Source of the DNA: Polyangiales bacterium
Lineage (GTDB): Bacteria > Myxococcota_A > Polyangia > Polyangiales > Polyangiaceae
Assembly: GCA_038231275.1 (NCBI GenBank)
Contig: JBBRLQ010000048.1
Coordinates: forward strand, 1-41,794
Direction: 5' to 3'
Length of the DNA: 41,794 bases
The notes below the pieces were generated by a model. The model saw nothing but the letters and a program-made list of their open reading frames with translations. It ran no database searches and was not told where the DNA came from. The position numbers were made by a program, and so were the translations under genes. Every line of letters begins with the position of its first letter. Within the stretch, counting starts at the first letter, position 1. Positions 8,436 to 39,821 of this stretch are shown here, one piece after another.

Positions 8436-8450
8436 GCAAGAGTGAGGCCA
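8436..8450 (-). promoter_or_regulatory. sigma54 -24/-12 promoter for cassette A
   Basis: TGGC-CTCACTC-TTGC(T) on the minus strand; GG-N10-GC spacing. Confidence 0.65.
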
Positions 8451-8561
8451 GCCCGCTTTTGCTCGAGGAGGAGCCGCAGGCGGCAAGCGTCAGCCGAGAC
8501 ATGAGCACCAGGTACGAAGCGCTGCGCAGAGGGCGCCCCGTTCCGAGGCCCTCTCGCGCTG

Positions 8562-8602
8562 TCGGACCTCTGGAGTCCGATGCTCGGACCGTTTCGGTCC
8601 GA
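8562..8602. promoter_or_regulatory. tandem palindromic upstream activator sites (UAS A)
   Basis: TCGGACC-tctgg-AGTCCGA (8562-8580) and perfect TCGGACC-gtttc-GGTCCGA (8584-8602), 22 bp period. Confidence 0.75.
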
Positions 8603-8651
8603 GATGGATCGGGGGAGGGCAGGCTGCGACCTCTTTCCGATGGAGTGGCAC

Positions 8652-9782
8652 TCACTGCTTCGGGGCGAAGCCGATCGTCCCCGCCGTGAAGTCGAAGAAG
8701 ACGTCCCTTTGGTAGAAGGGGATGGGGCCCAAGTTGTTGCCGATTGCCGTGCCGGCGCCGAGGACGAACGCGTCCTTGCCGACGACCGCGGGCGTGCCGA
8801 CCGTGAACGTCCACGACGCGTTCGTTGCGAGCTTTCCGGTGACGACCGTGCCTGCGGGAAAAGAGGTGCTTCCGTCAGGTATGCCGAGCGCGGCGTAGTC
8901 CGCCGGCGTCGAGACCGCGACCTTCGCGGCGTTGCCGCCCGTATCGATGATGCCGGTCGCGCAGAACGCGTTCAGGCAAAAGGGAACCTGCGTGTCCAAC
9001 CAACCAGGAACGCCGGACGCCGAGGTTTGCCCGTTCGTCGTCAGATGCACGAGATTCGCGTTGAAGCGGGCGATCTCGGCGGCGCTGGGGTCGACGTGCA
9101 GAACGCCCGCGCCGTCGCCGAACGCACCGAATGCAAGGATGTATTGTGCATGCGTTCCGAGCGCCGCGAGTGGGCTCGCGAGGTTCTTGGACGCACGCAT
9201 TCCTACACCGAGAATCGCGTTGAATTGGCCGCGGAAGCGAAACATGTCGATGGTCTTCCCAGCCGCTTCGCAGTTCGGCGCGCTCGCCGTGCAGGTCGCG
9301 CTGGTGACGTCTTCGACGGCGATCATTTTCGTCGTCTTGACGCCGCCGATCGTCACGAACGCATTGGCGATCGAGCCCCCAACCGTGACCCCGCTGCCGT
9401 ACGTCTCGGAGGCGGCAGCGGTGGCGGTGACGGTCCATGCGCTATCGGGGACGGTCCCCGTAATCACACGTAGCCCCACCGAGCCCGTGTCGAAGAATGC
9501 CGTGAACGGGGGGCTATCGCCGACGGAGATCTGGACGGTGCTGAAGGTGCCGTTCGGTCCGTTGGTCATCGGAGAGATTGGAATGTCGAACGCGGATCGC
9601 GGGCCCGCGGCCTCGACGTTGGCGTCGTGCGCCGGCGCGGCGGCGTCCGCCGGCGGAGTCGTGGTGCCGCCGTCGGCGCCGCCGGCATCGGCTTGGTCCG
9701 CCGGCGTGGCCGAGGCACCGCCTCCACACGCGGCCCCGAACGAGGCGAAAAGGATACTGAGGTTACGAAGCTTCATTGGCAT
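8652..9782 (-). CDS. pepsin-like aspartic protease lipoprotein (DUF3443-like)
   Basis: lipobox GAAC; two DTG motifs (FFDTGSVG, IIDTGGN), ILGVG, NLGPIPFYQRDVFFD...IGF ending. Confidence 0.75.
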   Translation of the reverse strand: MPMKLRNLSILFASFGAACGGGASATPADQADAGGADGGTTTPPADAAAPAHDANVEAAGPRSAFDIPISPMTNGPNGTFSTVQISVGDSPPFTAFFDTGSVGLRVITGTVPDSAWTVTATAAASETYGSGVTVGGSIANAFVTIGGVKTTKMIAVEDVTSATCTASAPNCEAAGKTIDMFRFRGQFNAILGVGMRASKNLASPLAALGTHAQYILAFGAFGDGAGVLHVDPSAAEIARFNANLVHLTTNGQTSASGVPGWLDTQVPFCLNAFCATGIIDTGGNAAKVAVSTPADYAALGIPDGSTSFPAGTVVTGKLATNASWTFTVGTPAVVGKDAFVLGAGTAIGNNLGPIPFYQRDVFFDFTAGTIGFAPKQ

Positions 9783-10012
9783 GCGTCGCAGACCGTGATC
9801 CTCGTGAGAGCGGCGTCGAGAACGACCAGAGTGTTGGCGGTGCATTGCCTCCGATACGCAATTGTCGGGCCGCACACGCTGCTGGCGCAGGGCTACTCGA
9901 CCTCGTCGCGCGCTCGCAGTGCACGACGACTACGACGACGTCGCCTAAGCCGTAAGCGCGCGTAAGCACCGTGGGGCATCGTTCGCGGCGAACGGCGCGC
10001 TACCTTGAGCCC

Positions 10013-11623
10013 ATGCTGTTTCGTCCGTCCGCGCTCACGCTGCTCGCCCTCGCGACGATGGGAACTTCTTGGGTCGCGTGCGTCACCTCCTCGGACAGTC
10101 CACCTGGCCCGCAGGCCTTCGACGGCGGCGGGTTCGACGCCGCTTGCACGTCCTGCGCGCCCGACGGGGACCTGCCGCGGGATGCCGCCACCGACACGGG
10201 GAGCCTCGACGCCGCGACGCCCGACGACTCCGCGGGCGGCGGCGACGCGGCGTCCGCGAAGGACGTGTACGTCGATCCCGCCGCGGGCCTCGACACGAAT
10301 GGCGGAACGAGCGCGTCGCCCTTCAAGACGATAGGGCGCGCGTTTACCGTCGTCCCCGCGGGAAGCACGGTATGGCTCGCAGACGGCACGTACCTCGCGG
10401 CGGCGGAGGGAAACAAAGTCCTCGCCATTCCCGACGGCACGACCCTCGCTGCAAGAAACGCCGGGCTCGCCGTTTTGTCGGCAATCGGATTCACGGCGAA
10501 CGGCGCGTCGACGGGAATCGCGGGCGTCGTCTTCGCAAGTGGCGCGACGCTCACCGCGAAAAATACGGCGATCGCGACGCCGACGCTCACCCTCACGGGC
10601 GTCCTGTTCACGTCGACGAGCAGCGCCGCCTCCACGCTGGCCGTTGGCGGCAACGTTCATGCGACGGTGAGCCAAACCTCCTTCTCGGGGAACCTGCCGT
10701 ATGGCACGCTCACCATTTCGGAAGCCGCCACGCTCGTGATGACGGGCGGGACGATCGACGCGAAAGGGACGGGCTCGGTGGCGTTCGGGGGCGGCGTCGT
10801 CACGGCGACCGGAACCTCGAACGTGACCCTCGACGGGGTGACTCTCAAGAACGTCCTCGCGACCGGGATCGTCGCCGGCGGAAACAACGCGGCCACCCCC
10901 TTGAAGCTGACCCTCCGCAATGGAACGACCCTCGATGCCGTCGGCTGCAACGGCACTCCTGGGGCGTGCGGAGCCATCGTCATCGGCGCGAACGCGAACG
11001 TGACCATCGATGGGTCCGAGGTAAAGAACTCTCCAGGCTCGGGCCTCTGCGTTCGTGCCTCCGGCGTCACATCGAACGTGACGGTCACCGTCCAAAACGC
11101 GGCGAAATTCACGAACGACGTCCGCGCGATCACGAGCGAGCCGGGAAGTGGTCAATCGTTTTCCGTCGCGACCTTCAAGATCGCGGGCGCGACGTTCGCG
11201 TCCAATTCGAGCGCGGCGATCTATTGGGAAGGGACCGGATCGTTCGATATCGGCGCGACAACGTTCAGCGCCAACGGCATTGGCATGCAGGTGTGGTCGA
11301 CGCCGTCGGTGAAATTGCGAAATAACGTATTTGCAGCGAATACGACCTACGCGTTCTTTGCGAGCAGCGTGTCGGCCGTGTTGCCCCTCGACCTCGGCAC
11401 GACCGCCAGCGCCGGCGGGAACACGCTCACGTCGGCGACGGGAACGGGGCTGTACCTCAGTCTTCCGAGCGCGCCGACGATCGACGCGGTGGGCAACACC
11501 TGGAACGCGAACGCCCAAGGGGCCGACGCGGCCGGTCACTATCCGGCGGGCACCACGATCGCCGGTCCGGTCGGCACCGGCGCGAACTATGTCCTCTCCA
11601 GCGTCGAGACCTTGCACCTCTGA
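10013..11623 (+). CDS. DUF1565 / parallel beta-helix lipoprotein
   Basis: lipobox WVAC; VYVDPAAGLDTNGGTSASPFKTIGRA...LADGTY motif; repeated beta-helix turns. Confidence 0.8.
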   Translation: MLFRPSALTLLALATMGTSWVACVTSSDSPPGPQAFDGGGFDAACTSCAPDGDLPRDAATDTGSLDAATPDDSAGGGDAASAKDVYVDPAAGLDTNGGTSASPFKTIGRAFTVVPAGSTVWLADGTYLAAAEGNKVLAIPDGTTLAARNAGLAVLSAIGFTANGASTGIAGVVFASGATLTAKNTAIATPTLTLTGVLFTSTSSAASTLAVGGNVHATVSQTSFSGNLPYGTLTISEAATLVMTGGTIDAKGTGSVAFGGGVVTATGTSNVTLDGVTLKNVLATGIVAGGNNAATPLKLTLRNGTTLDAVGCNGTPGACGAIVIGANANVTIDGSEVKNSPGSGLCVRASGVTSNVTVTVQNAAKFTNDVRAITSEPGSGQSFSVATFKIAGATFASNSSAAIYWEGTGSFDIGATTFSANGIGMQVWSTPSVKLRNNVFAANTTYAFFASSVSAVLPLDLGTTASAGGNTLTSATGTGLYLSLPSAPTIDAVGNTWNANAQGADAAGHYPAGTTIAGPVGTGANYVLSSVETLHL

Positions 11624-11792
11624 CGGTGTGCGTGCTGAGCGCGCCAGAGCTCACGCCGCACACTGCTCGAGAGGTCGCCGGAGATCTCGACGCGAGCTAC
11701 GGTCCCACCTTCGCGCGAGCCAGCGCGTCGCCGATGGGCCCGAGCGTGATGTTCTCGTCGGCTCCGAGGCGCGTGCGCTATCGTCCGTGCTC

Positions 11793-12683
11793 GTGCAGGT
11801 CAGACAGTCCATCACCGTGCTCCTTGCGCTCTTTCTCCTCGGTGGCTGCCGACCGAAGCCCGGGCCGGTCGACGTCGTGGCGGACGCCAGCGCGCCGGTC
11901 CCGCGCGCGACCGCCGCCGCCGATTCGGGATTTGCGCCGGCGAGGCCTTCCGCGCACGACGTGGTCGACGCATGGAACCAAGCGCACGTGAAGCACGACG
12001 CGACCGCGCTCCTGGGACTGTACGCACCTCGCGTCTCCTTCTACGGACGCACGCTGACCAATCGAGCGTGCGCAAATTCGAAGAAGGCGGCCTTCGCGAG
12101 CGACCCCAGCTACACCCAATCCGTGCGCGACGTGACCGCGCTGACCCTCGACGCGGGAGCGTCGGGCCCGACCGTGATGAGGTTCACCAAGACGAGCACC
12201 ACCAAGGGCAAGAGCACCGACTACCCGTCCACGCTCGTCGTCGACGCGAGCGGCCTCATCGTCACGGAGACCGACGCCGTGACCCAGCAGAACCTCGCCA
12301 GGCTAGCCCGTGACGAGTCGTCGTGGTGCACCGACAACGAGTACCCGGCGTTGGATTCGACGGCCACAGGCAAGCTCATTCCGCCGTTCAAGGTGAGCTC
12401 GCTGCGCGCCAGGCAACTCGGCATGCAGAGCAAACACTTCCGCACCCTCGCGGCGACCGAGCCTGACCACGCCATCGTCATCGACATCATCGGCTGCCCG
12501 ACCGCCTGCGACCGCGCTGCGAAAGAGTGCGGCTACCTCCTGCGGGTCGCCGACCACTCCAACATCGGAAAGTATGCATCCATCCTCGTCGGCTGGATCT
12601 ACGTCGACGCCATCGACGGCACGGTGTGGGACGAGACCGAGTCGGGTTGGCAATCCGAGCCGCCCTCCACCGGCGATTGGTGA
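11793..12683 (+). CDS. hypothetical lipoprotein with NTF2/SnoaL-like domain
   Basis: LLALFLLGGC lipobox; VVDAWNQAH..HDATALLGLYAPRVSFYG; start uncertain (11787 or 11793). Confidence 0.65.
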   Translation: MQVRQSITVLLALFLLGGCRPKPGPVDVVADASAPVPRATAAADSGFAPARPSAHDVVDAWNQAHVKHDATALLGLYAPRVSFYGRTLTNRACANSKKAAFASDPSYTQSVRDVTALTLDAGASGPTVMRFTKTSTTKGKSTDYPSTLVVDASGLIVTETDAVTQQNLARLARDESSWCTDNEYPALDSTATGKLIPPFKVSSLRARQLGMQSKHFRTLAATEPDHAIVIDIIGCPTACDRAAKECGYLLRVADHSNIGKYASILVGWIYVDAIDGTVWDETESGWQSEPPSTGDW

Positions 12684-12799
12684 GTGAGCTGCTCGCACGC
12701 CACATCTGCTACGGCGAGTGATCTTTGGCGGCGACCCCGCAGAACGCTCCGTGAACATCAAGCCGGGGCGGCCTCAATGAGTGGTTCATCCGCGGGTCG

Positions 12800-13435
12800 T
12801 CACGGCCCGCAGAGGCCCGCGCTGCAGGGCTGCGCATTCGAGCCGGCGCTCCGAAGAATGGCGCACGCGTTGACGTCCGCGCCTGAGCAATGCCGCTCGT
12901 AGAGGCGATGCGCGTCCTCGTAGATCAAGCGCTCGCATTCGGGGCGCGGCGGCGTCGCGCCGGACCAGATCCGTCGAAGGCTCTCGACGTAGAGCTGCGC
13001 CGCGAAGGGCCCGACGTCGGAGTCTGGACGCGCCTCGCCAAACGCGACGCGGCCGAACCAACGCGCGGCTTCCGGGTAGTGTCCAACGTCGAAGTAGATG
13101 CGCGCGATTCCGTAATGACACTCGTCCACAGGATAAGGAGGAGCTCCCCCGAACCGTCCCGGCCCCAGCTCCGGATGGATGTCTCGGCACTCTCGTTCGA
13201 GAATTTCTAGCCGCTCTGCGGTCGCGTCCGAGAGCGGCCTCGGTCCGTCCTTGGCCGCCGGTGCCGACCACGGCGTGGCCAGGCATCGGGCCTCGAGCTG
13301 CGCGCGGCGGTCCGCGGGCGCCGTGCGCGCAGGCGTCGCGGGCGACGGCCTCGCGACGGTGATCGGGTCGCGACCTACCTCCGGCGCGCCGCAACTCACG
13401 AGCGGCAGCAAACAGAGCAGAATGGCGAGCTTCAC
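12800..13435 (-). CDS. hypothetical lipoprotein with TPR-like helix pair
   Basis: GTG start, KLAILLCLLPLVSC lipobox; CHYGIARIYFDVGHYPEAARWF TPR-like segment. Confidence 0.65.
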   Translation of the reverse strand: MKLAILLCLLPLVSCGAPEVGRDPITVARPSPATPARTAPADRRAQLEARCLATPWSAPAAKDGPRPLSDATAERLEILERECRDIHPELGPGRFGGAPPYPVDECHYGIARIYFDVGHYPEAARWFGRVAFGEARPDSDVGPFAAQLYVESLRRIWSGATPPRPECERLIYEDAHRLYERHCSGADVNACAILRSAGSNAQPCSAGLCGP

Positions 13436-13456
13436 GTCACGAGGAATGTACGCGCG
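13425..13456. repeat. direct repeat copy 1 (26 bp exact with 22021..22046)
   Basis: GCGAGCTTCACGTCACGAGGAATGTA identical in both places, then one mismatch and GCGCG. Confidence 0.9.
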
Positions 13457-19403: not shown

Positions 19404-19405
19404 CG

Positions 19406-28522: not shown

Positions 28523-31500
28523 TCAGATCGGGCTGTACGTCGAATTGGACGGCTGGAACGTCTGCCACGTGCCGTTCTGAACGTGGTCGGAGAGCTCGCC
28601 GGAGTGCGGGTCTCCGAGGACGAGCGTGTTGGGCTCGTTCGCACCGAACCACCTCGAGTTCGACGCGAGGGGGCTGTTCGAGGTGGCCGCGCCGACCGGA
28701 GAGCCGGTGGTGTCGGAGAGCTGCCGCGCGCTCGAGTCGCCCATGACGTAGTTGCCGTTCGGCCCCGCCGCGACGATGGGCTGCGTCCCGCCGTTGCACG
28801 AGTGGAGCGTGACGGGGCGGTTCGGACCGCCCTTGAAGCCTGCCGCGTTCAGGTCCTGACCGAGCTGCACCCCGTTGACGGGCTTCCCGTCGAACCACGT
28901 CTGCCCCGGCGCGCCGTGGGCGTCGATGATCACGCTGTCGGCGCCGGCCAGGCTGCCCGGCGTGAGCTGACTCGGCGTGAAGAGCTGCGCCCCGGGGTTG
29001 GCTGCGACGTCGTAGTTCCCCCAGGTCTGGACGGCGGAGTCCCCGAGGTCACCCTCGATGACGGCGACGAATAGGCCGAGCGGGTCGACGCTGCACGTCG
29101 GATTCGGCACGAACGCGATGTCTTGGCCCGAGCCGCGAAGCTCCAACGGATCCGGGGACAAGAAGACGCCGAGCTCGGGCGAGTAGGTGCGGTGCCGATT
29201 GTACGAGAGGCCGGTGAGCGAGTCCGCGCGCTGCCCGGCGAAGCGCAGGCGCCCGGGATTTTCGCTGGCGCGCGCGACGGCCCCGGTCGCCGTGAGATCG
29301 ATGTCGGCGATCCCACCGGTCGCGTCGAGGTACGTCCACGGCGTGCCGGCGGCGTCGGTCGCGACGAGTCGAAACCCGCCGCCATCCGTGGACTCCAGGA
29401 GCAGCGAGTAGGCGTCGTCCTTGAACACGCGACGCGTCGGCAGCGTCCCGGTCCCTTGCTCCTCGACGAGGCCGTCGCCGTCCCAGCCATAGCGCGTGAC
29501 GTTGCCCTCACAGAGCTCGAGGAGTCGCCGGCCCAGCGCGTCGGACACGTAGTCGACGCGAAGCCCGTCGCCGCGCACCGCCGCCGCGAGCTGGTGGCGC
29601 TCGTCGTATTCGTATGCCCAACACATGAGGGGATCGGGATCGCGTCGCGAGGCGAGCCTTCCGAAGTCGTCCCACGCGAGCGTCGACGTGCGGGTGTTGA
29701 GGGGGCGACCGCCCCGGCCGAGCTGCGCGGTGGCCGGCCCTCTCGAAGAGACTGGCGTCCCGTGCGCCGAGTAGACGAAGCGCTCGTCCGCGCCGAGCCC
29801 GTCGACGCCGAGGATGCGGCCGCGCGCGTCGAGCGAATAGGACCGCGTTCCGTACTGCGCGTCGCCAATCGCGGTGACGGCGCCGTGCGCGCTCCACGCG
29901 TACGTCCGCTCGCGCACCGGCCGCCCGGCGTGGACGACGGTGACGCGCTCCGGGAGGCCCTCGGCGTTGCGCTGGGTGAGCACTGCCTGGCCGGCGCGGC
30001 GCCGAGCGAGCTCGTTCGCGCGCGCGTCGTGCTCGAGCTCGAGGACCTCGTGCGCGGACTCGCCGCCGACGCGCACGCGCACGGGGAGGCCTGATGGGCT
30101 GCGCTGAACGTCGACGCTCCATCCGCTCGAATAGCGGCGCGAGACGGCGCGCGAAGCAGCGTCGCGGACGTAGTCGACGGAGAAGCGCCAGTCGCCCACC
30201 GTCTGGACCTCGCGGACGACCGCGCCGAGCGCGTCGCGCGTGTACTCGACCGCCACGGTGCGGCCGCGCGTCGTCAGCTCCGCGAGGAGGAGGCGGCCGC
30301 CGGGATCGTACGCGTAGCGCTCGCTCGCGCCGCTCGAGTGGGCGCACGTGAGCACGCGACCCGCCGCGTCGTAGCTGATGGCGACGCTGCTGCCATCCGA
30401 GCGAACGACGTGGGACAGCCGCCCTTCGGCGTCGTATTCGCACGACTGGCGGACGCCCGCGAACGTGGACGCCGCGGCCGGATTGCCGCGCGCGTCGCAG
30501 CGAATTTCGTACCGCTCGCCCGCCGCGTTCACGAGCCACGCCGGACGCAGCACCGCGTCGAAGCCCATTCGCCAGACGGCGCCGTCGGGGAGCGTCGTCT
30601 CCACGAGCGCGTCGGCGACGTAGCGGCATCGAATCACCGCGCCGCTCGCGTACTTCGTCGCGACGATTCGCTTGAGCGCGTCGAGCTCGTATTCCGTGCG
30701 AAGACCCGCCGTGTCCTTGGCCACGAGGTTGTTGCCGTCGTCGTAGAAGAGCGTCGTCTTCTTGCCGGTCGGATCGGTGAGCGTGGTGAGAATGCCGAAC
30801 GGGTCGTACTCGAAGGTCCAGGTCGCGCCGTCGGCGTTGGCGCGGCGAATCAGGTTCCCTTGCGCGTCGTAGGCGCTCGATACGACGCCGCCGTCGGGCA
30901 GCGTCACGCTGGTCCGTTGGCCGCGTGCGTCGAGGCCGTAGCGACGACGACCACCCGACGGGTCCGTCACTTCGACGACGCGTCCGCGCGCGTCGCATCG
31001 CGACTGCCACACGCTGCCGTCGGGGTTCTTGACCGCCCGGATCCCGCCGCGGCCCGCGAGGACCTCGGTGGTCCCGTTCGCGTCGCTCTTCGACGTCGGG
31101 CGCCCCTCGTCGTCGTACGACAGCGTCGTCTCGTTGCCGAGCCCGTCGGTGAACGACGTCTGCCGACCGCCGGCGTCGTAGGCGTACGTCCGCGCGACGG
31201 CGCTCGGGTCGGTGTACTTCGTGACGACGCCGAGCGGAGACAATTCGTAGCGATGCGTCGACCCCACCCCGTCGATGACGGTCGACTCGGCCGGCCCGTA
31301 CCGGAGGCTCGTGTGGAAGATGCCCTTCGGCGGCACGTCGGCTGGGAGGTGGACGCGCGACGGCGCTGGCCCCGGACCGAACGCGAGCGACGAAGGCGGC
31401 GGACCGACGGGCCGCGGCGAGGGCGGCGCGCCGAGCTCGCGCAGGACGTCGCGCCCCGGGATCTCGCCCCACGTCTCGACGCAGCGGGCTTCGTCGCCGA

Positions 31501-32536
31501 ACGTGGCGTAGCGGAACTGGAAGACGAGCCCGTCCGCGCGACGCTCGGACATCATGCGGTGCGCGTGGTCGTACGTGTACTCGGTGGTTCGCCGCCTTGC
31601 GTCGGTCGCGCGAACGAGGTCGCCGCGCGCGTCCAGCTCGTAGACCGCGAGCGTTCGCGGTGACGCCGCGCCGCGCGCGTGCGCGAGCCACGCCCGACGG
31701 TGACCTTCCTTGACCAGGAACGCGCGACGCCCGACCGAGTCGATGACGCGCGCGATCTCGTGCCCATTCCAGCCGACGCGCGCGATGTTGCCCGACGCAT
31801 CGGTGAGCTCGGTCAGGCGGTGCATACCCTCGGGGCTACGGCGGAGAACGCGGAGGAGCCCGTCGCGCAGATCGAGGAAGAGCGTGTCGCCGCGGCGAAA
31901 GAGCGCGCGCCCGAACGGCAGGGCGACGACCCGACCTTCGACGGGGAGCAAAGCCTCGACCGGTTGCCCATCGGGGCCGAGGAGGAACACGCGATCGCCG
32001 ACGCGGTCCGCGCTCCAGTAGAGATCGTGTGACCAACCGAAGCCGAGGCCGCAGTCGCGAAGCGCGCTCGACGAGCGGTAGGACCTGCTCCACGCGACCG
32101 GGAAAATCCCGGGGAGGACGAAGTCCTCGCTGGGATGGGTGAACATCCTCCCGCTCGCGACGTCGACGGGATGGCCGGCCGACGCCGTCCCGGGGCCCGA
32201 CGCCGAGCCAGTCGGCGCGCCGCCGACGTCGACGTTGGGGCTACCGACGATGAGCTGCCCCATGCCGCCGCAGTGGGTCGTCTGATCGCCGACGCGGTGC
32301 GCCGGGAGGTTGTTGATGGTGACGGTGGAGCTGCCTTGTGAGGCCTTCCAGGTGTTCGCCCCGCAGCACGCGCTGTGCTTGCCGGGATCGGTCACCCGCA
32401 GCGCCTTCTGGTCGTTCACCGTCACGTTCGGCGACCCGTTCGTCCCGGGGCCGACGCACGTGTGCGCGCAGCACGGGTTGCCGTGCGAGTCCGCCGGCAC
32501 CTTTGCATTGTCCCCGACGCGACCTTGTGCGGCCAT
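28523..32536 (-). CDS. PAAR-Rhs (YD-repeat) T6SS effector with C-terminal His/Cys peptidase-like domain
   Basis: N-terminal PAAR (GSPNV, PAHRVGD), HPVDVASG (DUF6531-like), YD repeats, core end GQRADSLTGLSYNRHRTY...FLSPDP...NPTCSVDPLGL, 182-aa CT with IDAHG and LHSC. Confidence 0.92.
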   Translation of the reverse strand: MAAQGRVGDNAKVPADSHGNPCCAHTCVGPGTNGSPNVTVNDQKALRVTDPGKHSACCGANTWKASQGSSTVTINNLPAHRVGDQTTHCGGMGQLIVGSPNVDVGGAPTGSASGPGTASAGHPVDVASGRMFTHPSEDFVLPGIFPVAWSRSYRSSSALRDCGLGFGWSHDLYWSADRVGDRVFLLGPDGQPVEALLPVEGRVVALPFGRALFRRGDTLFLDLRDGLLRVLRRSPEGMHRLTELTDASGNIARVGWNGHEIARVIDSVGRRAFLVKEGHRRAWLAHARGAASPRTLAVYELDARGDLVRATDARRRTTEYTYDHAHRMMSERRADGLVFQFRYATFGDEARCVETWGEIPGRDVLRELGAPPSPRPVGPPPSSLAFGPGPAPSRVHLPADVPPKGIFHTSLRYGPAESTVIDGVGSTHRYELSPLGVVTKYTDPSAVARTYAYDAGGRQTSFTDGLGNETTLSYDDEGRPTSKSDANGTTEVLAGRGGIRAVKNPDGSVWQSRCDARGRVVEVTDPSGGRRRYGLDARGQRTSVTLPDGGVVSSAYDAQGNLIRRANADGATWTFEYDPFGILTTLTDPTGKKTTLFYDDGNNLVAKDTAGLRTEYELDALKRIVATKYASGAVIRCRYVADALVETTLPDGAVWRMGFDAVLRPAWLVNAAGERYEIRCDARGNPAAASTFAGVRQSCEYDAEGRLSHVVRSDGSSVAISYDAAGRVLTCAHSSGASERYAYDPGGRLLLAELTTRGRTVAVEYTRDALGAVVREVQTVGDWRFSVDYVRDAASRAVSRRYSSGWSVDVQRSPSGLPVRVRVGGESAHEVLELEHDARANELARRRAGQAVLTQRNAEGLPERVTVVHAGRPVRERTYAWSAHGAVTAIGDAQYGTRSYSLDARGRILGVDGLGADERFVYSAHGTPVSSRGPATAQLGRGGRPLNTRTSTLAWDDFGRLASRRDPDPLMCWAYEYDERHQLAAAVRGDGLRVDYVSDALGRRLLELCEGNVTRYGWDGDGLVEEQGTGTLPTRRVFKDDAYSLLLESTDGGGFRLVATDAAGTPWTYLDATGGIADIDLTATGAVARASENPGRLRFAGQRADSLTGLSYNRHRTYSPELGVFLSPDPLELRGSGQDIAFVPNPTCSVDPLGLFVAVIEGDLGDSAVQTWGNYDVAANPGAQLFTPSQLTPGSLAGADSVIIDAHGAPGQTWFDGKPVNGVQLGQDLNAAGFKGGPNRPVTLHSCNGGTQPIVAAGPNGNYVMGDSSARQLSDTTGSPVGAATSNSPLASNSRWFGANEPNTLVLGDPHSGELSDHVQNGTWQTFQPSNSTYSPI

Positions 32537-32552: not shown

Positions 32553-32567
32553 GCAAGACGCAGACCT
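32553..32567 (-). promoter_or_regulatory. sigma54 -24/-12 promoter for the Rhs gene
   Basis: AGGT-CTGCGTC-TTGC(TA); context CGAGGTCTGnnTCTTGCTA shared with 39805-39823. Confidence 0.7.
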
Positions 32568-32629: not shown

Positions 32630-32670
32630 TCAGACCAAATCGTTCCGATGGATGGACCGCGAAGGTCCGA
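32630..32670. promoter_or_regulatory. tandem palindromic UAS (UAS R)
   Basis: TCAGACC-aaatc-GTTCCGA (32630-32648) and ATGGACC-gcgaa-GGTCCGA (32652-32670), 22 bp period. Confidence 0.75.
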
Positions 32671-32694: not shown

Positions 32695-34836
32695 GTGACG
32701 GCCGTGTCCAACGTACCGCTCGTCATCGGACGCTACGTCCTGCTCGACAAGATCGGGGCGGGCGGGATGGCGTCCGTGTTCCTGGGTCGGATGACCGGCG
32801 CGGCGGGGCTCTGCCGCACCGTCGCGATCAAGCGCCTGCACCCGCACCTCGCCGAGGATCGCGAGCTCCTGACGATGCTCCTCGACGAGGCGCGCATCAC
32901 GATGCGAATCCGGCACCCCAACGTGGTGCCGACGATCGACGTCGTGCAGTTGGATCGCGAGCTCTTGATCGTCATGGAGTACGTCGTCGGCGTGACGCTC
33001 GAGCGGGTCCTGCGTCAGGCCGCGCAGCGCAGCGAGGCGCCGCCACCGCCGGTCGCCGCGACCCTCCTCGCCGGCGTGCTCCACGGCCTGCACGCCGCTC
33101 ACGAAGTCCAGGACGAGCGCGGCAGGCCGCTCGACGTCGTCCACCGCGACGTGTCCCCGCAGAACATCCTCGTCGGTGCGGACGGCGTCACCCGGGTCCT
33201 CGACTTCGGCATCGCGAAGGCGGTCGGACGCATGCTGCAGTCGACGCAGTCGGGGCAAGCGAAGGGCAAGCTCGCGTACATGGCCCCCGAGCAGCTCGAA
33301 GGCGGCGCGGTCGATCGTCGGACCGACGTCTTCGCGGCGGGCATCGTGCTTTGGGAGACGCTCACGCTGGCGCGTCTGTTCTCCGCGCCGACCGAAGCGC
33401 TCACGATGGCGAAGGTCCTTCGCGGCGTCGTTCCTCCGCCTTCGACGCTCGCGCTGGGCCTCGACCCACGCTTCGACGCCGTATGCGCGAAGGCGCTCGC
33501 GCGGAGCCCGCAGGCTCGATTCGCGACCGCTCGAGAGATGGCGCTCGAGCTGGAAGCCATCGCGGCCCTCCCGATGTCGGCGATCGCGAGCTACGTCGAG
33601 CGCACGTGCGGCGACGAGCTTCGCGCGCATTCGGAGCGCCTTCGAGCGTCGGAGCTCGGTCCGGGCGAAATGTCCGGCGTGTCGACGGTGCGCGATCCGC
33701 CGCTCATCGCGACCGCGCCGGGAGGACGCGCGTCCTCTGGCAACGTCTTGGTGGCGCCGACGTTACGCTCTCCCGACGCTTCGAAAAAGAAGCGGGCCCT
33801 CGGGGGGCTCGCGCTGGCTTTGGGCGCGCTCTCGCTCGCCGCGGCCTCCGTGACGGCGTGGGCCGTGAAGCACAAAAGCACCACGACCCCCGACGCGGGA
33901 TCGCGCGCCATCGCGGCCAGACGAATCTGGAGCGGCCAGGCGGACGCGGTGCCGGGCGCGTTCGTCGGCGACGCGACGGAGGACTTCGTCGGCGCGATGC
34001 TGGTCGCGGACTCGCCGGTCTCCACGACGTTCAGCGCGGTCGTCACCATGGTCGACGGCGCCACGCTCGAATCGGTGTGGAGCACGCAGCCGATCGAGGA
34101 CGCGATGTGGGCCGCGTTCGGCGCCAACGCCGGCCGCGTGGTGGCCACGACGCATCCGCACGAGGTCACCGTCTACGTGGCGGCGACCGGCGCGATCACC
34201 CACGTCGTCGACACGGCCTTCGCCGTCAAGCAGCTCTGCGCGTCGCCCGACGATCCGCACGGGCTCTGGATGGAGCTCGCCGGCAAACGCGAAGCCGCGA
34301 TCGACCTCGAGACCGGTGCGCTACGACCCACGACGGCGCCGCCGCGCGGCTGCTTCTACCGAGACCCCGCGGGTAAGGCGGGCGCCGAGGCCGTCTTATT
34401 CGCCCACGCGCAGGCGCAGCATGCGTTCCGTCCGATCGACGGTCCCGCGTACAAAGGGCTGCTCCTCGAGGGCGACGTGGCAGTGCACGGCGCCAAGCAA
34501 CCCAGCGGCGACGATCTCGTGGTCGCCTACGACTCGCGGACCTGGAAACAGCTTTGGTCGCGAACCGATCCTCCCTCCACGTCGGTTCCGCACGTGCTCG
34601 ATCTCATCGGCGGGCGCGTGTACATCCAGAGCTCCACGTCGCTGGAGTGCACGGACGCGCGCACCGGCAAGCTGATTTGGAAGGCGGTGCCCGGCCAGAA
34701 GCTGGGAGCGATGACCTCGGGCATGACGCATCTCCGCGCGGGCCCGCAGCGCGTCTACCTCTCGACGCTCGCCAGGCTGATCGTCCTCGACGCGGCGACG
34801 GGCCGCGAGGTCGGCATGTTCCCCAAACCGTTTTGA
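32695..34836 (+). CDS. membrane Ser/Thr kinase with C-terminal PQQ-like beta-propeller
   Basis: GAGGMA, VAIK, HRDVSPQN, DFGIAK, GKLAYMAPE; TM segment; AYDSRTWKQLW, DARTGKLIW, DAATGREV repeats. Confidence 0.92.
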   Translation: MTAVSNVPLVIGRYVLLDKIGAGGMASVFLGRMTGAAGLCRTVAIKRLHPHLAEDRELLTMLLDEARITMRIRHPNVVPTIDVVQLDRELLIVMEYVVGVTLERVLRQAAQRSEAPPPPVAATLLAGVLHGLHAAHEVQDERGRPLDVVHRDVSPQNILVGADGVTRVLDFGIAKAVGRMLQSTQSGQAKGKLAYMAPEQLEGGAVDRRTDVFAAGIVLWETLTLARLFSAPTEALTMAKVLRGVVPPPSTLALGLDPRFDAVCAKALARSPQARFATAREMALELEAIAALPMSAIASYVERTCGDELRAHSERLRASELGPGEMSGVSTVRDPPLIATAPGGRASSGNVLVAPTLRSPDASKKKRALGGLALALGALSLAAASVTAWAVKHKSTTTPDAGSRAIAARRIWSGQADAVPGAFVGDATEDFVGAMLVADSPVSTTFSAVVTMVDGATLESVWSTQPIEDAMWAAFGANAGRVVATTHPHEVTVYVAATGAITHVVDTAFAVKQLCASPDDPHGLWMELAGKREAAIDLETGALRPTTAPPRGCFYRDPAGKAGAEAVLFAHAQAQHAFRPIDGPAYKGLLLEGDVAVHGAKQPSGDDLVVAYDSRTWKQLWSRTDPPSTSVPHVLDLIGGRVYIQSSTSLECTDARTGKLIWKAVPGQKLGAMTSGMTHLRAGPQRVYLSTLARLIVLDAATGREVGMFPKPF

Positions 34837-34855
34837 GAGCCGGTGTCGTGCCGCG

Positions 34856-36190
34856 TCACTTCGAGCGATTGCGGATCCGCTGGAAATAACGGCGACCGAT
34901 GCCGGACGCGTCGCTCGCGCGTCCGACGTGCCCGCCGTGCGCGGCGAGGACCCGCTCGACGTACCTTCGCTCGTACTCCGCGACCACGTGCTGCCGACCC
35001 ATGATGAGCGGGAGGTTCTGATCGAGCAGCGACTCGAGGAAGTCTCCGCCCGTTGCGGCGTCGTCCTTCGCCGCTACGGCCGGCAGCGTGCCCACGTGAG
35101 GCCCGATCTCGCCCATCGTGAGGTAGCGCGCGATCGTGTTCTGGAGCTCGCGCACGTTCCCCGGCCAGGAGTGCCGCTCGATGCGGGCCATGATGTCGGG
35201 GGGAATCGGCGGAACGCCGCCCAGGTCGGACCAGAAGACCTCCGCGAGGAACGGCACGTCCCCTGCCCGATCGCGGAGCGGCGGCAGCTCGACGCGACCG
35301 ATCGCGAGGCGGTAGAAGAGGTCGTCTCGGAAGCGCCCGTCTTGCACTTGCTTGTCGAGATCGCGGCGCGTCGCGCCGATGACCCGGACGTCGACGTGGA
35401 TCCAGTCGTTCCCGCCGACGCGGCGAACCTCCGAGCGCTCGACCGCGCGGAGGAGCTTGGCCTGGAGAGAGAGCTCGAGATCACCGAGCTCGTCGATGAA
35501 GAGCGTCCCGCCGTCTGCCTGCTCGAAGACTCCTTTGCGCGCGGCCTGCGCGCCGGTGAAGGCTCCGCGCTCGTGGCCGAAGAGCTCGCTCTCGACGAGG
35601 TTCGCGGCGAGCGTGGTGCAGTCGATGACGACGAAGGGCGCCGCCGCGCGCGCGCTCGCCGCGTGGATGGCCTCCGCGAGCGCCTCCTTCCCGGTGCCGG
35701 TCTCCCCTTCGATGATCGTCGGGATGTCGCTCGCGGCGAGGCGCTTGGCGATGGCGTAGACGCGGCGCATCTCCGAGCTCGTGCCGAGGACGCGGCCGAA
35801 GCCCGGCACACCGGGCAGCTGCGCCTTGCCGGCGAGCGCATCGACGCGGAGGGTGCTCTCGCCGACCTGGATCGTCTCGCCGCCGGAGAGGATCGCCTCC
35901 ACGATCGACACGCCCTGAAGACGCGTGCCGTTCGTCGAGCCGAGGTCACGCAGACGAAGCACGCTGCCCACGAGCTCGAGCGACGCGTGGCGACGCGAGA
36001 CGAGGCGATCGGCGAGGCGAATCGCGCACGCGGGACCGGTGCCGATGAGAGAGCGAAACGCCGCCGTCGCGTCGAGCTCAATCGCGGCGCCGGCGTCGGG
36101 TCCGGCGACCACCGTGCAACGGTACGTGGTGACCGGCGCGGAACGCAGCGCGCGCGGGTCCACGGAGGTCGCTTCCTCCTCGGGTTTCAC
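34856..36190 (-). CDS. FHA-domain sigma54-dependent enhancer-binding protein (Fis-type HTH)
   Basis: FHA (VSRRHA, DLGSTNGT), GETGTGKE, ELFGHERGAFTGA, LFIDE, RFRDDLFYRL, WPGNVRELQN, C-terminal HTH. Confidence 0.95.
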   Translation of the reverse strand: MKPEEEATSVDPRALRSAPVTTYRCTVVAGPDAGAAIELDATAAFRSLIGTGPACAIRLADRLVSRRHASLELVGSVLRLRDLGSTNGTRLQGVSIVEAILSGGETIQVGESTLRVDALAGKAQLPGVPGFGRVLGTSSEMRRVYAIAKRLAASDIPTIIEGETGTGKEALAEAIHAASARAAAPFVVIDCTTLAANLVESELFGHERGAFTGAQAARKGVFEQADGGTLFIDELGDLELSLQAKLLRAVERSEVRRVGGNDWIHVDVRVIGATRRDLDKQVQDGRFRDDLFYRLAIGRVELPPLRDRAGDVPFLAEVFWSDLGGVPPIPPDIMARIERHSWPGNVRELQNTIARYLTMGEIGPHVGTLPAVAAKDDAATGGDFLESLLDQNLPLIMGRQHVVAEYERRYVERVLAAHGGHVGRASDASGIGRRYFQRIRNRSK

Positions 36191-36288
36191 AGCGCAAATC
36201 GTAGCCCAAAAGAAGGCGCGTCCGGCGATTCCGTTGGCGCGGTAACCGCGATTGGTCGACCGCGAACCGCGCTGGTACCCTTCTCACG

Positions 36289-37773
36289 GTGACGGCATTG
36301 TCCGAGCTGCCGCTTGTGATCGGGCGCTACGCGCTCTTCGACAAGATCGGTTCCGGCGGAATGGCGTCGGTGTTTCTGGGCCGCATGAGCGGCGCCGCCG
36401 GGCTCACCCGCACCGTCGCCATCAAGCGCCTGCACCCCCACCTCGCGGAGAACCGCGAGCTGGCGTACATGCTGCTCGACGAAGCGCGGATCACGATGCG
36501 GATTCGGCACCCCAACGTGGTGCCGACCGTCGACGTGACGCAGCTCGGGGACGAGCTTTTGATCGTGATGGATTACGTCGTGGGCTCGTCGCTCGCGCAG
36601 CTCTTGAGCCACGCCAACGAGCAGCGCGAGCTGCCTCCCCCGGCGATCATCGCGACGATCGTCTCCGGCGTCTTGCATGGGCTGCACGCGGCGCACGAGG
36701 TGAAGGACGAGCGGGGGCAGCCGCTCCGCGTCGTGCACCGCGACGTCTCTCCACAGAACATCCTCGTCGGCGCCGACGGCACCGCGCGCGTGCTCGACTT
36801 CGGCATCGCGAAGGCAGCGGGGCGGCTCCACTCGACGCAGGACGGGCAAGCGAAGGGCAAGCTCGCGTACATGGCGCCGGAGCAGCTCGAAACGAGCGAC
36901 ATCGATCGACGGGCCGACGTCTTCGCGGCGGGCGTGGTCCTGTGGGAGGCGCTCACGTTGAAGCGGCTCTTCGCAGAGGCGAGCGAAGCGCTGACGATCG
37001 CGCGGGTCCTTCGCGGCGTCGTCACGCCGCCTTCCGAGCTCGTGGCGGGGCTCGACACGCGCTTCGACGAGGTGTGCGCCAGGGCGCTCCAGCGCAATTC
37101 TCGCGCCCGTTACGCGACGGCGCGCGAGATGGCCCTGGCACTGGAGGCGTGCGGGACGGTCCCGACGTCGGTGGTCTCTTCGTACGTCGAGCGGTTGTGT
37201 GGAGACGATCTGCGCGCCCGCTCGGCGCGTGTGCAGCGGACGGAGCAGGCCTCCCCCGACGAGTCGGGCGAGTCGACGATCAAGGATCCGACGCCGCAGG
37301 TCAGCACGCTGACGCCGGTGCGCGCGCCGACCCCGGTACGCACGCAGCCGCCGGAGAACGTTCCGACGCTCATCTCGGTGACGCCCCAGCCGATCCAGCC
37401 AGAGCCGCGCGAGGCACGGGGGCTACACGGCTGGCGCCTCGCGCTGCCGATGCTCGCGGTCGCTGGCATCGGGGCCTTCGCGCTGCGCGCGTCGATTCGT
37501 CCCGAGGGCGCGCCGATCGCGGCGAGCCCGGCGCCCGTCTCGCCTCCCGTCCCTGCGCCGCCGCCGATCGGCGCCGTCGACCCGATCGTCGCCGACGCCG
37601 CGGCGATCGCGCAGGCGGTGACCGACTCGGCGGGCGTGCCCAAGCCCATGAGCCGACCGGCGATTCCACCGAGCGCGACGCGGACTGCCGCGCCGGCGGC
37701 GAAGCCCAAGTGCAAGGTCGTGTCCGTGGCGCGCGCCGACGGCACCCTCGATTTCCAGGAGAAGTGCGAGTGA
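36289..37773 (+). CDS. membrane Ser/Thr kinase
   Basis: same kinase motifs as 32695..34836; TM, Pro/Ala linker, C-terminal C...C mini-loop. Confidence 0.92.
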   Translation: MTALSELPLVIGRYALFDKIGSGGMASVFLGRMSGAAGLTRTVAIKRLHPHLAENRELAYMLLDEARITMRIRHPNVVPTVDVTQLGDELLIVMDYVVGSSLAQLLSHANEQRELPPPAIIATIVSGVLHGLHAAHEVKDERGQPLRVVHRDVSPQNILVGADGTARVLDFGIAKAAGRLHSTQDGQAKGKLAYMAPEQLETSDIDRRADVFAAGVVLWEALTLKRLFAEASEALTIARVLRGVVTPPSELVAGLDTRFDEVCARALQRNSRARYATAREMALALEACGTVPTSVVSSYVERLCGDDLRARSARVQRTEQASPDESGESTIKDPTPQVSTLTPVRAPTPVRTQPPENVPTLISVTPQPIQPEPREARGLHGWRLALPMLAVAGIGAFALRASIRPEGAPIAASPAPVSPPVPAPPPIGAVDPIVADAAAIAQAVTDSAGVPKPMSRPAIPPSATRTAAPAAKPKCKVVSVARADGTLDFQEKCE

Positions 37774-38552
37774 CGTGGATGGCGCGGGTCGCCGCAACTG
37801 CGGCGCTGCTCCTTTGCGCGGGGCGTGCCGACGCGGCCGACGCGGACTTCGAGTCGTGCCGCGCGGCAGCGCTCGAGGCGCAGCGGCTGCATGCGGCGCA
37901 GGCGCTGCTCGAAGAGCGCGGCGAGCTCCTCAAATGCCTCCGCCCCGAATGCCCGGACGTCATCCAGGCTTCGTGCCGCGGCTGGCTCGAGGAGAACCAC
38001 GAGGCGCGCCCTAGCCTTGTCGTCATCGCAAAGGACGCGCGCGGCAACGACGTCGTGGGCGCGACGTTCACGGTCGACAAAGACCGCACGGCTCGCAAGG
38101 TCGACGGCAAGCCGCTCGAGCTGAACCCCGGCACGCACACGATTCATGGAGAGGCGCCGAGCCTCGCGCCGCTCGAGATGGAGATCATGGTGGCCATCGG
38201 CGTGAAGCTCCGCCCCGTGACGCTCAGCTGGCCGGCCGCCGCGGAGACGCCGGAGCCGACCAAGCCGCCGCCTCCTCCGAAGACCGTCGAGGTCCGCCCG
38301 ATCCCCGCGCGGGTCCTCGTTCTCGGCGCCGCGTCGGCCGTCGCGCTCGGCGCCGCGACCGTCTTCGGCGTCCTCGCGTGGCGCGAGTACGACGATCTGC
38401 GCGCGAGCAACCGCGGCGATCAGCAGCCGCTCCCCACGTACCGCGTCGCCGGCGACGTTGCGCTGGGCGTCGGCGTCGTCCTCGCGGGTCTCACGCTTTG
38501 GCAATTTCTGACGCGCCCCGCCGTGCGTCAGTTCGAGCACTCGTCCTTGTAG
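37770..38552 (+). CDS. exported PEGA-like protein with C-terminal TM helices
   Basis: GTGA coupling to the kinase; signal peptide, C..CP....C..W, PSLVV.AKD, LELNPGTH, two hydrophobic helices. Confidence 0.75.
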   Translation: MTWMARVAATAALLLCAGRADAADADFESCRAAALEAQRLHAAQALLEERGELLKCLRPECPDVIQASCRGWLEENHEARPSLVVIAKDARGNDVVGATFTVDKDRTARKVDGKPLELNPGTHTIHGEAPSLAPLEMEIMVAIGVKLRPVTLSWPAAAETPEPTKPPPPPKTVEVRPIPARVLVLGAASAVALGAATVFGVLAWREYDDLRASNRGDQQPLPTYRVAGDVALGVGVVLAGLTLWQFLTRPAVRQFEHSSL

Positions 38553-39664
38553 TTGGGGCCGCACGGCGAGCTGGCGTCGACGACCGGGCCGAGCGGACCG
38601 GCGAGCGCCTGCACCGCCGTGAAGCCCACACCCATCGAGAACGCGTCGCACGCGGCGCCGGTGCGGTCGCCAGCGGCGTCGGCCGTGATGTCGGGAGCGC
38701 CGCAAATTCGCGGTTTGATCGCAGCGTAGGTCAGGCTCCCCTTGCAGAGCTTTCCGCCGTCGACGAAGGGGTCGTCGAATTCGGCCAGCGCGGCGAGGGC
38801 GTCGACGGTGGCCCAGCGGCCCGCGATGACTCCCTCCCCCAGCCGTCCGAGACCGCCGTCGCTCGTGACGCGCGCAGCCAGAACGCCGCCTTGCAGCTTC
38901 ACGGTCAGGTTGAACGCGCCCGAAACGGTCAGGGGAAAGTCCACGTGCGCGACGAGGACCCCGCGGGCGACGTAGGCGACGGGATCGACGTACACCGGCA
39001 GGAACGGCGGCCCCTGCTGTCCGGCGACCGAGCTTCGGTTGAGCGTCCAGACGTCTGTTCCGTCGAAACGCGCGGGCGGATGGAAGCCCGCGTCGTTGAC
39101 CGGCGTTCCGTCGGAGATGAAGAGGGCGAGCTCGACCTGCGGGTCGTTCTGCGTGCCGTTGTACTTGTGGAGGACGAAGAGCAGGCTCGCGTGCCCAATC
39201 GCGATGATCTCGTTCGCGCGCGCTTGATCGATGACCTTGCCGAAGCCGCTCAGGCTGGTGAGGAGATCGCCGCCGCCGTTGTCCACGCCGCCGTCGCGAT
39301 CGCACATCAACCCCGTGCCGGCGCAGGCCGGCGCGTCGGGGCAGGTGCACAGACCGTCCAGATCGAAGCCCGGCGCGGGGCCGGCGTCGCCGAAGCCGAG
39401 CTCCACCGTCTGGAGCGCGAAGGTCAGGTCGACGTCGGCGCCGCCCGGATCGTCGGCCGCGGGGCGCGCTGGCCAATGGACGAGCGGACAGCCCGGGGGC
39501 GGCGTGGCGTCGGCGACGTCGTTCGCCGCGTCGCCGGCATCGAGCGGCGGCGCGGCGTCCGCGGGACCGGCGCCGGGGCCGTCGAGCTGAAAGAGCAGCG
39601 AGCAGGCGGCGATCAAGGGCATCCCCACGATGACCACGGCCTTGACCACGCGCCGGCGCATCAC
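38528..39664 (-). CDS. hypothetical Cys-containing lipoprotein
   Basis: LIAAC lipobox, DAG linker, GFDLDGLCT and DRDGGVDN motifs; TACGCT -10 box 6 nt before GTG. Confidence 0.78.
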   Translation of the reverse strand: MMRRRVVKAVVIVGMPLIAACSLLFQLDGPGAGPADAAPPLDAGDAANDVADATPPPGCPLVHWPARPAADDPGGADVDLTFALQTVELGFGDAGPAPGFDLDGLCTCPDAPACAGTGLMCDRDGGVDNGGGDLLTSLSGFGKVIDQARANEIIAIGHASLLFVLHKYNGTQNDPQVELALFISDGTPVNDAGFHPPARFDGTDVWTLNRSSVAGQQGPPFLPVYVDPVAYVARGVLVAHVDFPLTVSGAFNLTVKLQGGVLAARVTSDGGLGRLGEGVIAGRWATVDALAALAEFDDPFVDGGKLCKGSLTYAAIKPRICGAPDITADAAGDRTGAACDAFSMGVGFTAVQALAGPLGPVVDASSPCGPNYKDECSN

Positions 39665-39683
39665 CCGCGCAGCGTACCGCCAG

Positions 39684-39724
39684 TCGGACCACCGCGGTCT
39701 GGTGATCGGACCGAACGGTTCCGA
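39684..39724. promoter_or_regulatory. tandem palindromic UAS (UAS B)
   Basis: TCGGACC-accgc-GGTCTGG (39684-39702) and TCGGACC-gaacg-GTTCCGA (39706-39724), 22 bp period. Confidence 0.75.
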
Positions 39725-39806
39725 TGCTCGCCCGCGACGTGGGTCGTCCCCCGGGAAAAACAGGGCATTTGCCGCGCGACGCACCTCTCCGCACGGTCAC
39801 CGCCCG

Positions 39807-39821
39807 AGGTCTGGCTCTTGC
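39807..39821 (+). promoter_or_regulatory. sigma54 -24/-12 promoter for the DcrB-like/vgrG operon
   Basis: AGGT-CTGGCTC-TTGC(TA); GG-N10-GC. Confidence 0.7.

Follow-up and report, generated by a model that had tools for sequence, protein, structure and literature searches.

What controls the T6SS (type VI secretion system) cargo genes on contig C48 of a Polyangiales bacterium? We analyzed the whole contig, which is 41,794 bp long and is called the window below; it makes up 0.45% of a draft genome (G000) of 9.28 Mb with 69% G+C in 164 contigs. A first-pass annotation had described three intergenic regions that each carry two copies of a 19-bp palindrome, TCGGACC-N5-GGTCCGA, next to a sigma-54-type promoter element. 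It had proposed that an FHA-type enhancer-binding protein (EBP) encoded nearby activates spike, Rhs toxin, and adaptor genes through these sites; the protein has an FHA domain, a sigma-54 AAA+ domain, and a helix-turn-helix (HTH). We found that the paired sites occur far beyond chance and that, among related genomes, the site accompanies the recognition helix of this EBP. We consider it likely that the three tandem dyads are the upstream activating sites of the FHA-type EBP at 34856-36190. The sites, the promoters, and the EBP gene are as follows.

8562..8602, no strand: tandem dyad pair 1; promoter-distal site 8584-8602, proximal site 8562-8580; 112 bp from the GG of P1.
32630..32670, no strand: tandem dyad pair 2, lying between the divergent genes for PAAR-Rhs (-) and a Ser/Thr kinase (+); 63 bp from the GG of P2.
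39684..39724, no strand: tandem dyad pair 3; 83 bp from the GG of P3; conserved in G002, a genome of the same genus.
8436..8450, minus strand: promoter P1, TGGCCT-CACTC-TTGCT; 13 nt from the end of the GC to the ATG at 8422; TGGC..TTGC is canonical.
32553..32567, minus strand: promoter P2, AGGTCT-GCGTC-TTGCT; 17 nt from the end of the GC to the ATG at 32536.
39807..39821, plus strand: promoter P3, AGGTCT-GGCTC-TTGCT; 13 nt from the end of the GC to the ATG at 39835.
34856..36190, minus strand: FHA - sigma-54 AAA+ - HTH EBP (Pfam FHA, Sigma54_activat, and HTH_8), the proposed cognate activator.

All six dyads were confirmed on the sequence, and the start-to-start spacing was 22 bp in each of the three pairs. 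Mismatches to the consensus numbered one at 8562, none at 8584, two each at 32630, 32652, and 39684, and one at 39706. The three GG-N10-GC elements were likewise found as claimed, on the minus strand for P1 and P2 and on the plus strand for P3. The distances from pair to promoter had been given as 111, 62, and 82 nt, which is correct for the way of counting used there; counted between the pair's end and the first G in the GG doublet, they are 112, 63, and 83 bp.

We asked how unusual this arrangement is. Single sites with up to three mismatches were not significantly enriched in the window (12 found versus 7.35 expected; 6 of 100 shuffles reached 12). The whole genome holds 701 sites at up to three mismatches and 53 at up to two, and 6 of these 53 are inside the window. 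In the entire genome, six pairs of sites are no more than 60 bp apart. Three of them are spaced at 22 bp and are the three pairs of the window; the rest are spaced at 10, 10, and 48 bp. At any one given spacing, about 0.05 pairs are expected, as calculated from 701 sites in 9.28 Mb. The remaining sites in the genome with no more than one mismatch number three; all fall in coding sequence, and one is part of a Walker A motif. Given the genome-wide counts and the restriction of the 22-bp pairs to the window, the dyad motif is not a scattered repeat. Thus, the pairing of dyads before three loci is far beyond chance.

Palindromes such as these could instead act as RNA, forming tandem 7-bp hairpins that serve as terminators or stability elements. 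The position of pair 1, directly past the stop codon (8652) of an upstream minus-strand peptidase-like gene, would suit such a role. However, pairs 2 and 3 are in divergent promoter regions, outside the predicted transcripts, and there is no run of T residues after the stems. Moreover, the stems are conserved as sequence without compensatory change, and the loop sequence is free. We regard an RNA function as scarcely credible.

The pairs are coupled to promoters of the sigma-54 type, for which the textbook consensus is TGGCAC-N5-TTGCW. P1 is a good fit to this extended consensus, and P2 and P3 match it exactly at -12 (TTGCT) and partially at -24. The genome has rpoN (PF04552, 219 bits, a single match at C8:218289-218768). 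In Myxococcus xanthus, this gene has been reported to be essential (PMC12316311). Together with the related genomes described below, we have eight modules, each a dyad pair with its promoter, in five genomes. The GG and GC doublets are exactly 10 nt apart in 3/3 promoters of the window and in 8/8 modules, and in 8/8 modules a GG-N8-TTGC element follows the dyad pair 50 to 112 bp on. In two of these genomes, G054 and G223, the element reads GGCAC-N5-TTGCT. The individual gaps from pair to promoter are 50, 50, 52, 61, 63, 69, 83, and 112 bp, which correspond to no single helical phase. The first-pass annotation had named a scattered repeat unlinked to GG-N10-GC as the case that would count against it; what we found is that the pairs are unique and that every module is promoter coupled. 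One other sigma-54-like element in the window, 12 nt before the ATG at 9845 on the minus strand and 5' of a peptidase-like gene, has no dyads, and we set it aside as probably a background match.

G002, a genome of the same genus, has an orthologue of the EBP with 86% identity. The neighborhood there reads kinase, lipoprotein (minus strand), dyad pair, GGGTCTGCGTCTTGCTA, and then vgrG and PAAR-Rhs; GGGTCTGCGTCTTGCTA is the form in which the block with P3 is kept. The dyads of this vgrG module have 3 and 2 mismatches and are 23 bp apart, and in all other modules the spacing is 22 bp. When the regions upstream of vgrG in G000 and G002 were aligned, the half-sites and the -24/-12 block proved to be kept and the remainder to have diverged. 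On a second G002 contig (C297), there is a module with a pair of 1 and 2 mismatches and a TGGTCC-N5-TTGCT element 52 bp downstream; 14 nt past its GC, a dcrB gene begins with ATG, and a homologue of orf158, a small gene described below, comes next. Comparing five modules, we found that nothing aligns beyond the half-sites and the -24/-12 blocks.

These comparisons bear on whether the modules might be copies of one duplicated promoter cassette that moved with shuffled cargo, so that their similarity would reflect recent descent and not function. There are signs of shared ancestry: the string previously noted as common to two promoters, CGAGGTCTG-NN-TCTTGCTA, is present in both the Rhs and dcrB2 promoters (P2 and P3), P2 is nearly identical to the vgrG promoter of G002, and the two dcrB genes of the window are paralogous, with 52% identity. 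However, the dyad spacers, the linkers, and the 50- to 112-bp stretch between pair and promoter cannot be aligned, and the half-sites and -24/-12 elements are kept, which points to selection rather than recent copying. In addition, three other genera have these dyads in front of genes of an unrelated kind (GH81 and GH16). We therefore consider a copied cassette very improbable.

The AAA+ domain of the EBP matches PF00158 with 216 bits, and the motifs GETGTGKE (Walker A), GAFTGA, and DELGD (Walker B) are invariant in the alignment. A probable HTH is present in the C-terminal domain (about residues 380 to 444), the HTH segment is conserved across orthologues and paralogues, and the recognition helix reads RRYFQRIRNR. 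Two patterns, each defined from the window alone, were searched for in all 383 family genomes: the tandem site, allowing up to three mismatches, and the helix as a degenerate DNA pattern. The tandem pattern was found in 8/383 genomes, compared with 0/383 for a reversed control. The helix was found in 5/383 genomes (G000, G002, G012, G054, and G223), and all five have the tandem site; leaving out G000, the count is 4/4. Among genomes without the helix, the tandem pattern was found in 3/378.

The three matches without the helix were examined and set aside. The match in G053 has 3 mismatches and was found on one strand only. In G137, there are three identical TCAGACC-type copies about 8.7 kb apart (C6:5893, 14644, and 23363), which are probably part of a large repeat. 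The match in G150 is an exact 22-bp tandem duplication. The RRYFQRIRNR pattern is absent from these three genomes; with a 62-residue HTH query, G053 and G137 gave EBPs with other helices, and G150 gave no match. A further match, in G002:C426, was set aside as lying within a coding sequence that resembles an acyl-CoA dehydrogenase, named by translation alone.

G054 and G223 are from other genera. In both, the pair is 49 bp from the start of a divergent FHA-EBP gene (52% identity) and 50 bp upstream of the GGCAC-N5-TTGCT element, which precedes the gene for a secreted GH81 protein. These pairs are at positions 1501-1541 in both L109 (G054:C555) and L112 (G223:C177). In G012, a dyad pair (L022, G012:C97, 9239-9279) precedes a GH16 gene. 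This GH16 gene (L022, about 9397-9505) has an in-frame TAG after the lipoprotein signal peptide, which may be an assembly error or mark a pseudogene. The closest named relative of the EBP in a search for related loci was a Polyangiales metagenome-assembled genome. The 80 related loci from this search (1.30 Mb; EBP homologues with up to 52% identity) contained no site with one or no mismatch and no pair at 19 to 26 bp; they serve solely as a negative control.

The dyads might be regulatory and yet be bound by another protein, either an FHA-EBP paralogue or a non-EBP dimer such as a repressor, with the neighboring EBP acting elsewhere. The genome offers candidates. It has more than 40 EBP-like matches, and seven FHA-EBP paralogues have most of the helix in common, their own helices taking the similar form RRYFQ-x-[IL]R-A-R. 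In addition, only 23 to 25 nt separate pairs 2 and 3 from the start codons of the genes on the other side, and a repressor could work from such a position. On the other hand, the exact helix RRYFQRIRNR tracks the site (5/5, compared with 3/378 without the helix), and in G054 and G223 the site abuts the gene of an EBP with this very helix. All eight modules are tied to a sigma-54-type promoter, which needs an EBP. Furthermore, two of the paralogues have distinct dyads of their own. The EBP at C11:47846-49135 has tandem dyads of the GCGAACG type, 22 bp apart, at C11:44529-44590, and the EBP at C35:19529-20815 has tandem CACGTCC-N5-GGACGTG dyads, 22 bp apart, at C35:25722-25762. These dyads are 3 to 5 kb from the paralogue gene, each beside a sigma-54 element 13 nt before an ATG. 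We consider binding by a different protein unlikely. Separately, we observed three consecutive CACGCG...CGCGTG dyads, 22 bp apart, near a TGGACT-N5-TTGCA element at C67:10088-10150, and many more CACGCG/CGCGTG repeats lie past them.

Helix and site thus covary, which is the strongest computational evidence for assigning the dyads to the neighboring FHA-EBP, and the assignment appears well supported by this comparison. The earlier proposal that this EBP would act on all three targets agrees with the computational tests, and its helix occurs together with the site. Several observations nevertheless weigh against the proposal. The -24 elements of P2 and P3 are poor (AGGTCT compared with TGGCAC); that of P2 has just the GG and one further base in common with TGGCAC. 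P2 is also 17 nt from its ATG, off the modal distance of 12 to 14 nt described below, and transcription starting 12 nt after the GC would cut into its GGTGGAG, which resembles a Shine-Dalgarno sequence. The HTH_8 match of the EBP, at 21.4 bits, is just below the cutoff of 22. Overall identity does not set the EBPs of G054 and G223 (52%) apart from the paralogues in G000 (56 to 58%); because overall identity is not discriminating, the link between protein and site rests on the 10-residue helix. Since the genomes are related, with the five that have the helix divided among four genera, the co-occurrence makes them look more independent than they are. In G012, separate contigs carry the EBP and the dyad pair. 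The genus also includes G001, where we found no tandem site and where single sites were barely above the control (39 compared with 27). Finally, in the FHA domain of the EBP (PF00498, 46.6 bits), for which the best solved match is the FHA domain of GarA (E = 1.9e-9), the arginine of the GarA G-R motif is aligned to a threonine (residues ~49 to 52).

G001 does have an orthologue of the EBP, with 82% identity and a helix that ends in RIRSR, one residue changed (N to S). Beside this EBP, there is no tandem site even at up to four mismatches. In the region 2540-2700 of L014 (G001:C52), a lone dyad with three mismatches stands roughly 90 bp upstream of a -12-like CTTGCTCTA, in which the -24 reads AG and not GG; from this element it is 14 nt to the ATG of a gene for a peptidase-like lipoprotein. 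This lone dyad may be a decayed or altered module.

The FHA domain raises the question of what signal the EBP receives. The position of the GarA arginine is threonine in three aligned relatives and glutamine in G054 and G223, and the EBP retains S-R-R-H and S-T-N-G. We take the G-R arginine to be the residue that binds phosphothreonine and S-x-x-H and N-G to belong to the pocket. The pocket of this FHA domain may thus be noncanonical, and the threonine at the arginine position weakens the step from kinase to FHA domain. A Ser/Thr kinase link is the usual proposal for the FHA-EBPs of Myxococcus xanthus. Two Ser/Thr kinase genes flank the EBP gene in the window, and a kinase homologue adjoins the EBP in G002 and G001. 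A phospho-signal from the flanking kinases through the FHA domain is possible, but we hold to it only tentatively.

We also asked how the promoters are placed relative to their start codons; at first sight, gaps of 13, 17, and 13 nt between GC and ATG seem too short, but closeness of this kind is usual in the genome. Across G000, GG-N8-TTGC elements before the ATG of an open reading frame (ORF) of at least 100 codons number 29, 66, and 49 at 12, 13, and 14 nt, respectively, compared with 8 to 23 at each of the other distances from 5 to 30 nt. In the same genome, controls with GG-N9 or GG-N11 spacing gave no peak before ATG, and GTG, TTG, and CTG starts gave no comparable peak; the peak is specific to ATG. 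The 144 peak sites yield YGGC(A/C)CG-N4-TTGCT, which is the textbook consensus for sigma-54. There are 102 sites of the form TGGC[AC]-N6-TTGC, which has the GG-N10-GC spacing, in G000, and in 22 of them the first ATG is 13 to 14 nt after the GC. Examples of GG-N8-TTGC elements near an ATG can be seen at C1:359557-359587, C3:399282-399312, and C14:5569-5599. The trait may be general, since in 41 genomes of the order TGGCM-N6-TTGC-N13-ATG had 183 matches, compared with 14 for a reversed control.

A GC doublet 12 to 14 nt before the ATG would put the transcription start at or a few nucleotides from the AUG, giving a leaderless mRNA. This geometry suggests that sigma-54 promoters in G000 often give leaderless mRNAs, and the counts suggest about 100 enhancer-dependent leaderless mRNAs in this genome. 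P1 and P3 are at the modal distance of 13 nt, and P2 is at 17 nt. The transcripts of the window are predicted to be leaderless or nearly so, with a start 0 to 5 nt before the ATG; a start about 12 nt after the GC, as expected in the first-pass annotation, would lie within 2 to 5 nt of the ATG, a consequence which that annotation does not mention. The ATGs at 8422, 32536, and 39835 are likely to be the true start codons, since the two DcrB paralogues match at their N termini from the initial Met onward and the PAAR protein has a typical N terminus. We found no description of sigma-54-driven leaderless mRNAs in the literature, where most of the matching papers are known to us by title alone. The leaderless mRNA described in PMC12754779 is of the sigma-A type.

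The genes around the sites, whose identities we checked by Pfam profile matches, are as follows.

7892..8422, minus strand: dcrB-like 1 (DUF1795/DcrB family), putative T6SS effector chaperone/adaptor (PF08786, 46.1 bits).
7578..7895, minus strand: small ORF of 105 aa, immediately 3' of dcrB-like 1; no Pfam family.
28523..32536, minus strand: PAAR-DUF6531-Rhs toxin gene (Pfam PAAR_motif, DUF6531, and RHS_repeat in 6 stretches).
32695..34836, plus strand: Ser/Thr protein kinase (Pfam) with a C-terminal PQQ/beta-propeller region; starts 25 nt past pair 2.
36289..37773, plus strand: second Ser/Thr protein kinase (Pfam), divergent from the EBP gene; it is the homologue of this kinase that adjoins the EBP in G002 and G001.
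38528..39661, minus strand: putative lipoprotein, signal peptide ending ..IAAC; no Pfam family; starts 23 nt from pair 3.
39835..40380, plus strand: dcrB-like 2 (PF08786, 38.2 bits); reading frame checked.
40400..40876, plus strand: orf158, a conserved small ORF of 158 aa between dcrB-like 2 and vgrG; no Pfam family.
40870..41794, plus strand: vgrG (Pfam Phage_GPD), incomplete at the contig end.

Both dcrB genes exceed the PF08786 cutoff of 27.2 bits. DcrB/DUF1795 proteins are Eag-type T6SS effector chaperones. The second dcrB gene is inside the vgrG operon, in the order dcrB2-orf158-vgrG, and the first has no spike or PAAR gene alongside; a T6SS role for dcrB1 is inferred from its paralogy to dcrB2. 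The 105-aa ORF at 7578..7895 would form an operon with dcrB-like 1. The start of vgrG is placed at the ATG at 40870 by the N terminus MVTTNALKLAF, which is common to G002, and orf158 overlaps this start. The homologue of orf158 in G002:C297 (about 6300-6765) also follows a dcrB gene, and the protein may be a small cargo or adaptor partner. The lipoprotein gene is divergent from the dcrB2-vgrG operon, and the same gene is found beside the vgrG module of G002.

How much of the T6SS does this regulon cover? The sites had been described as standing before all three T6SS cargo units. This is true within the window and does not extend to the genome: G000 has eight DcrB-family genes, of which just the two in the window have a dyad pair, and the six other dcrB-like genes and the core T6SS have no site. 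A further divergent PAAR/dcrB pair on C14 is without the site. The core T6SS, with the sheath genes, is on C25, and no tandem 22-bp pair was found in G000 anywhere outside C48. Thus, on the distribution of its sites, the predicted regulon is one cargo set, neither all T6SS cargo nor the core T6SS. In other genera, the same helix is accompanied by dyads that precede GH81 or GH16 beta-glucanase genes and not T6SS genes. The predicted regulon therefore differs between genera, with glucanases in some and T6SS cargo here.

The sequence shows the motif to be unique, coupled to sigma-54-type promoters, and found together with the helix, and from this we infer how binding, looping, activation, and signal input could proceed. 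An EBP ring usually assembles on two dyads that share one helical face. Two dimers of the FHA-type EBP would bind each pair on one face of the DNA, 22 bp being two turns. Once bound, the dimers would form the AAA+ ring and reach the sigma-54 RNA polymerase held at the GG-N10-GC element 63 to 112 bp downstream. The polymerase would open the promoter and start 0 to 5 nt before the ATG, producing a leaderless or near-leaderless mRNA. The outcome would be coexpression of the dcrB2-orf158-vgrG spike operon, the PAAR-Rhs toxin, and the extra DcrB-type adaptor cassette. The EBP would in this way select the T6SS load, with the core machine on another contig under separate control. The input would perhaps come from the two flanking Ser/Thr kinases by way of the FHA domain, which is a weak step in this scheme.

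Taken together, these observations can be joined into a wider reading, which we offer as speculative and somewhat doubtful as a whole. The order would routinely use sigma-54 promoters that start at the AUG, expressing about 100 genes per genome as enhancer-dependent leaderless mRNAs. One FHA-EBP clade, with a noncanonical FHA pocket and the helix RRYFQRIRNR, would have been rewired from secreted beta-1,3-glucanases (GH81 and GH16; three genera) to a T6SS "ammunition set" of spike, PAAR-Rhs toxin, and two adaptors in this genus. Ser/Thr kinase signaling would then decide, without regard to the core machine, what the weapon fires. Specialists are likeliest to be surprised by the leaderless sigma-54 geometry and by the target switch.

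We compared this system with those already known. As described in PMC8855297, the Pseudomonas aeruginosa sigma-54 activator Sfa2 coordinates several separate vgrG/effector loci. RpoN sites are reported there before vgrG islands, and conserved upstream inverted repeats are suggested as transcription factor targets. Sfa2 is encoded in the core T6SS cluster and is concluded to link expression of the core cluster and the vgrG islands; one clear Sfa2 binding site is given, 2132 bp from the RpoN site (PMC8855297). The two systems are alike in that one EBP ties separate or orphan vgrG loci together, there and, by our prediction, here. They differ in that the EBP here is encoded in a cargo island on C48 beside vgrG and Rhs, with the core cluster on C25 lacking the site, and in that every target has a sharply defined tandem site 50 to 112 bp upstream. 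Further differences are the FHA input domain and the predicted leaderless mRNAs. PMC8855297 also presents VasH (VCA0117) of Vibrio cholerae as a sigma-54 EBP needed for expression of auxiliary T6SS clusters and cites an IHF-assisted arrangement for it. VasH is encoded in the main cluster, whereas the EBP here lies outside the core cluster.

In its domain plan, the EBP resembles the FHA-EBPs of Myxococcus xanthus, which belong to the same phylum and have the same order of FHA, sigma-54 AAA+, and HTH domains. These FHA-domain enhancer-binding proteins were reportedly described by Jelsbak, Givskov and Kaiser in 2005 (PNAS 102:3010) and are said to be tied to fruiting-body development. We know of no T6SS targets and no such binding site for them. 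To our knowledge, neither VasH nor Sfa2 carries an FHA domain, and no tandem 19-bp dyad motif of the present kind is known to us for VasH. Among the papers listed in our literature search, none joins myxobacteria, T6SS, and sigma-54. We conclude that the present system is a variant of VasH/Sfa2-type T6SS control that has not been described before.

In Vibrio and Pseudomonas, control of T6SS accessory loci by sigma-54 and an EBP is known, but the DNA site of the activator is poorly defined. Here, sequence alone supplies a sharp 19-bp dyad, a fixed two-turn tandem layout, a probable recognition helix, and a predicted regulon of three promoters, in which cargo is kept apart from the core machine. 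The locus is also a clean test case for specificity among dozens of EBPs in one bacterium and for a change of regulon targets between genera, from glucanases to T6SS cargo.

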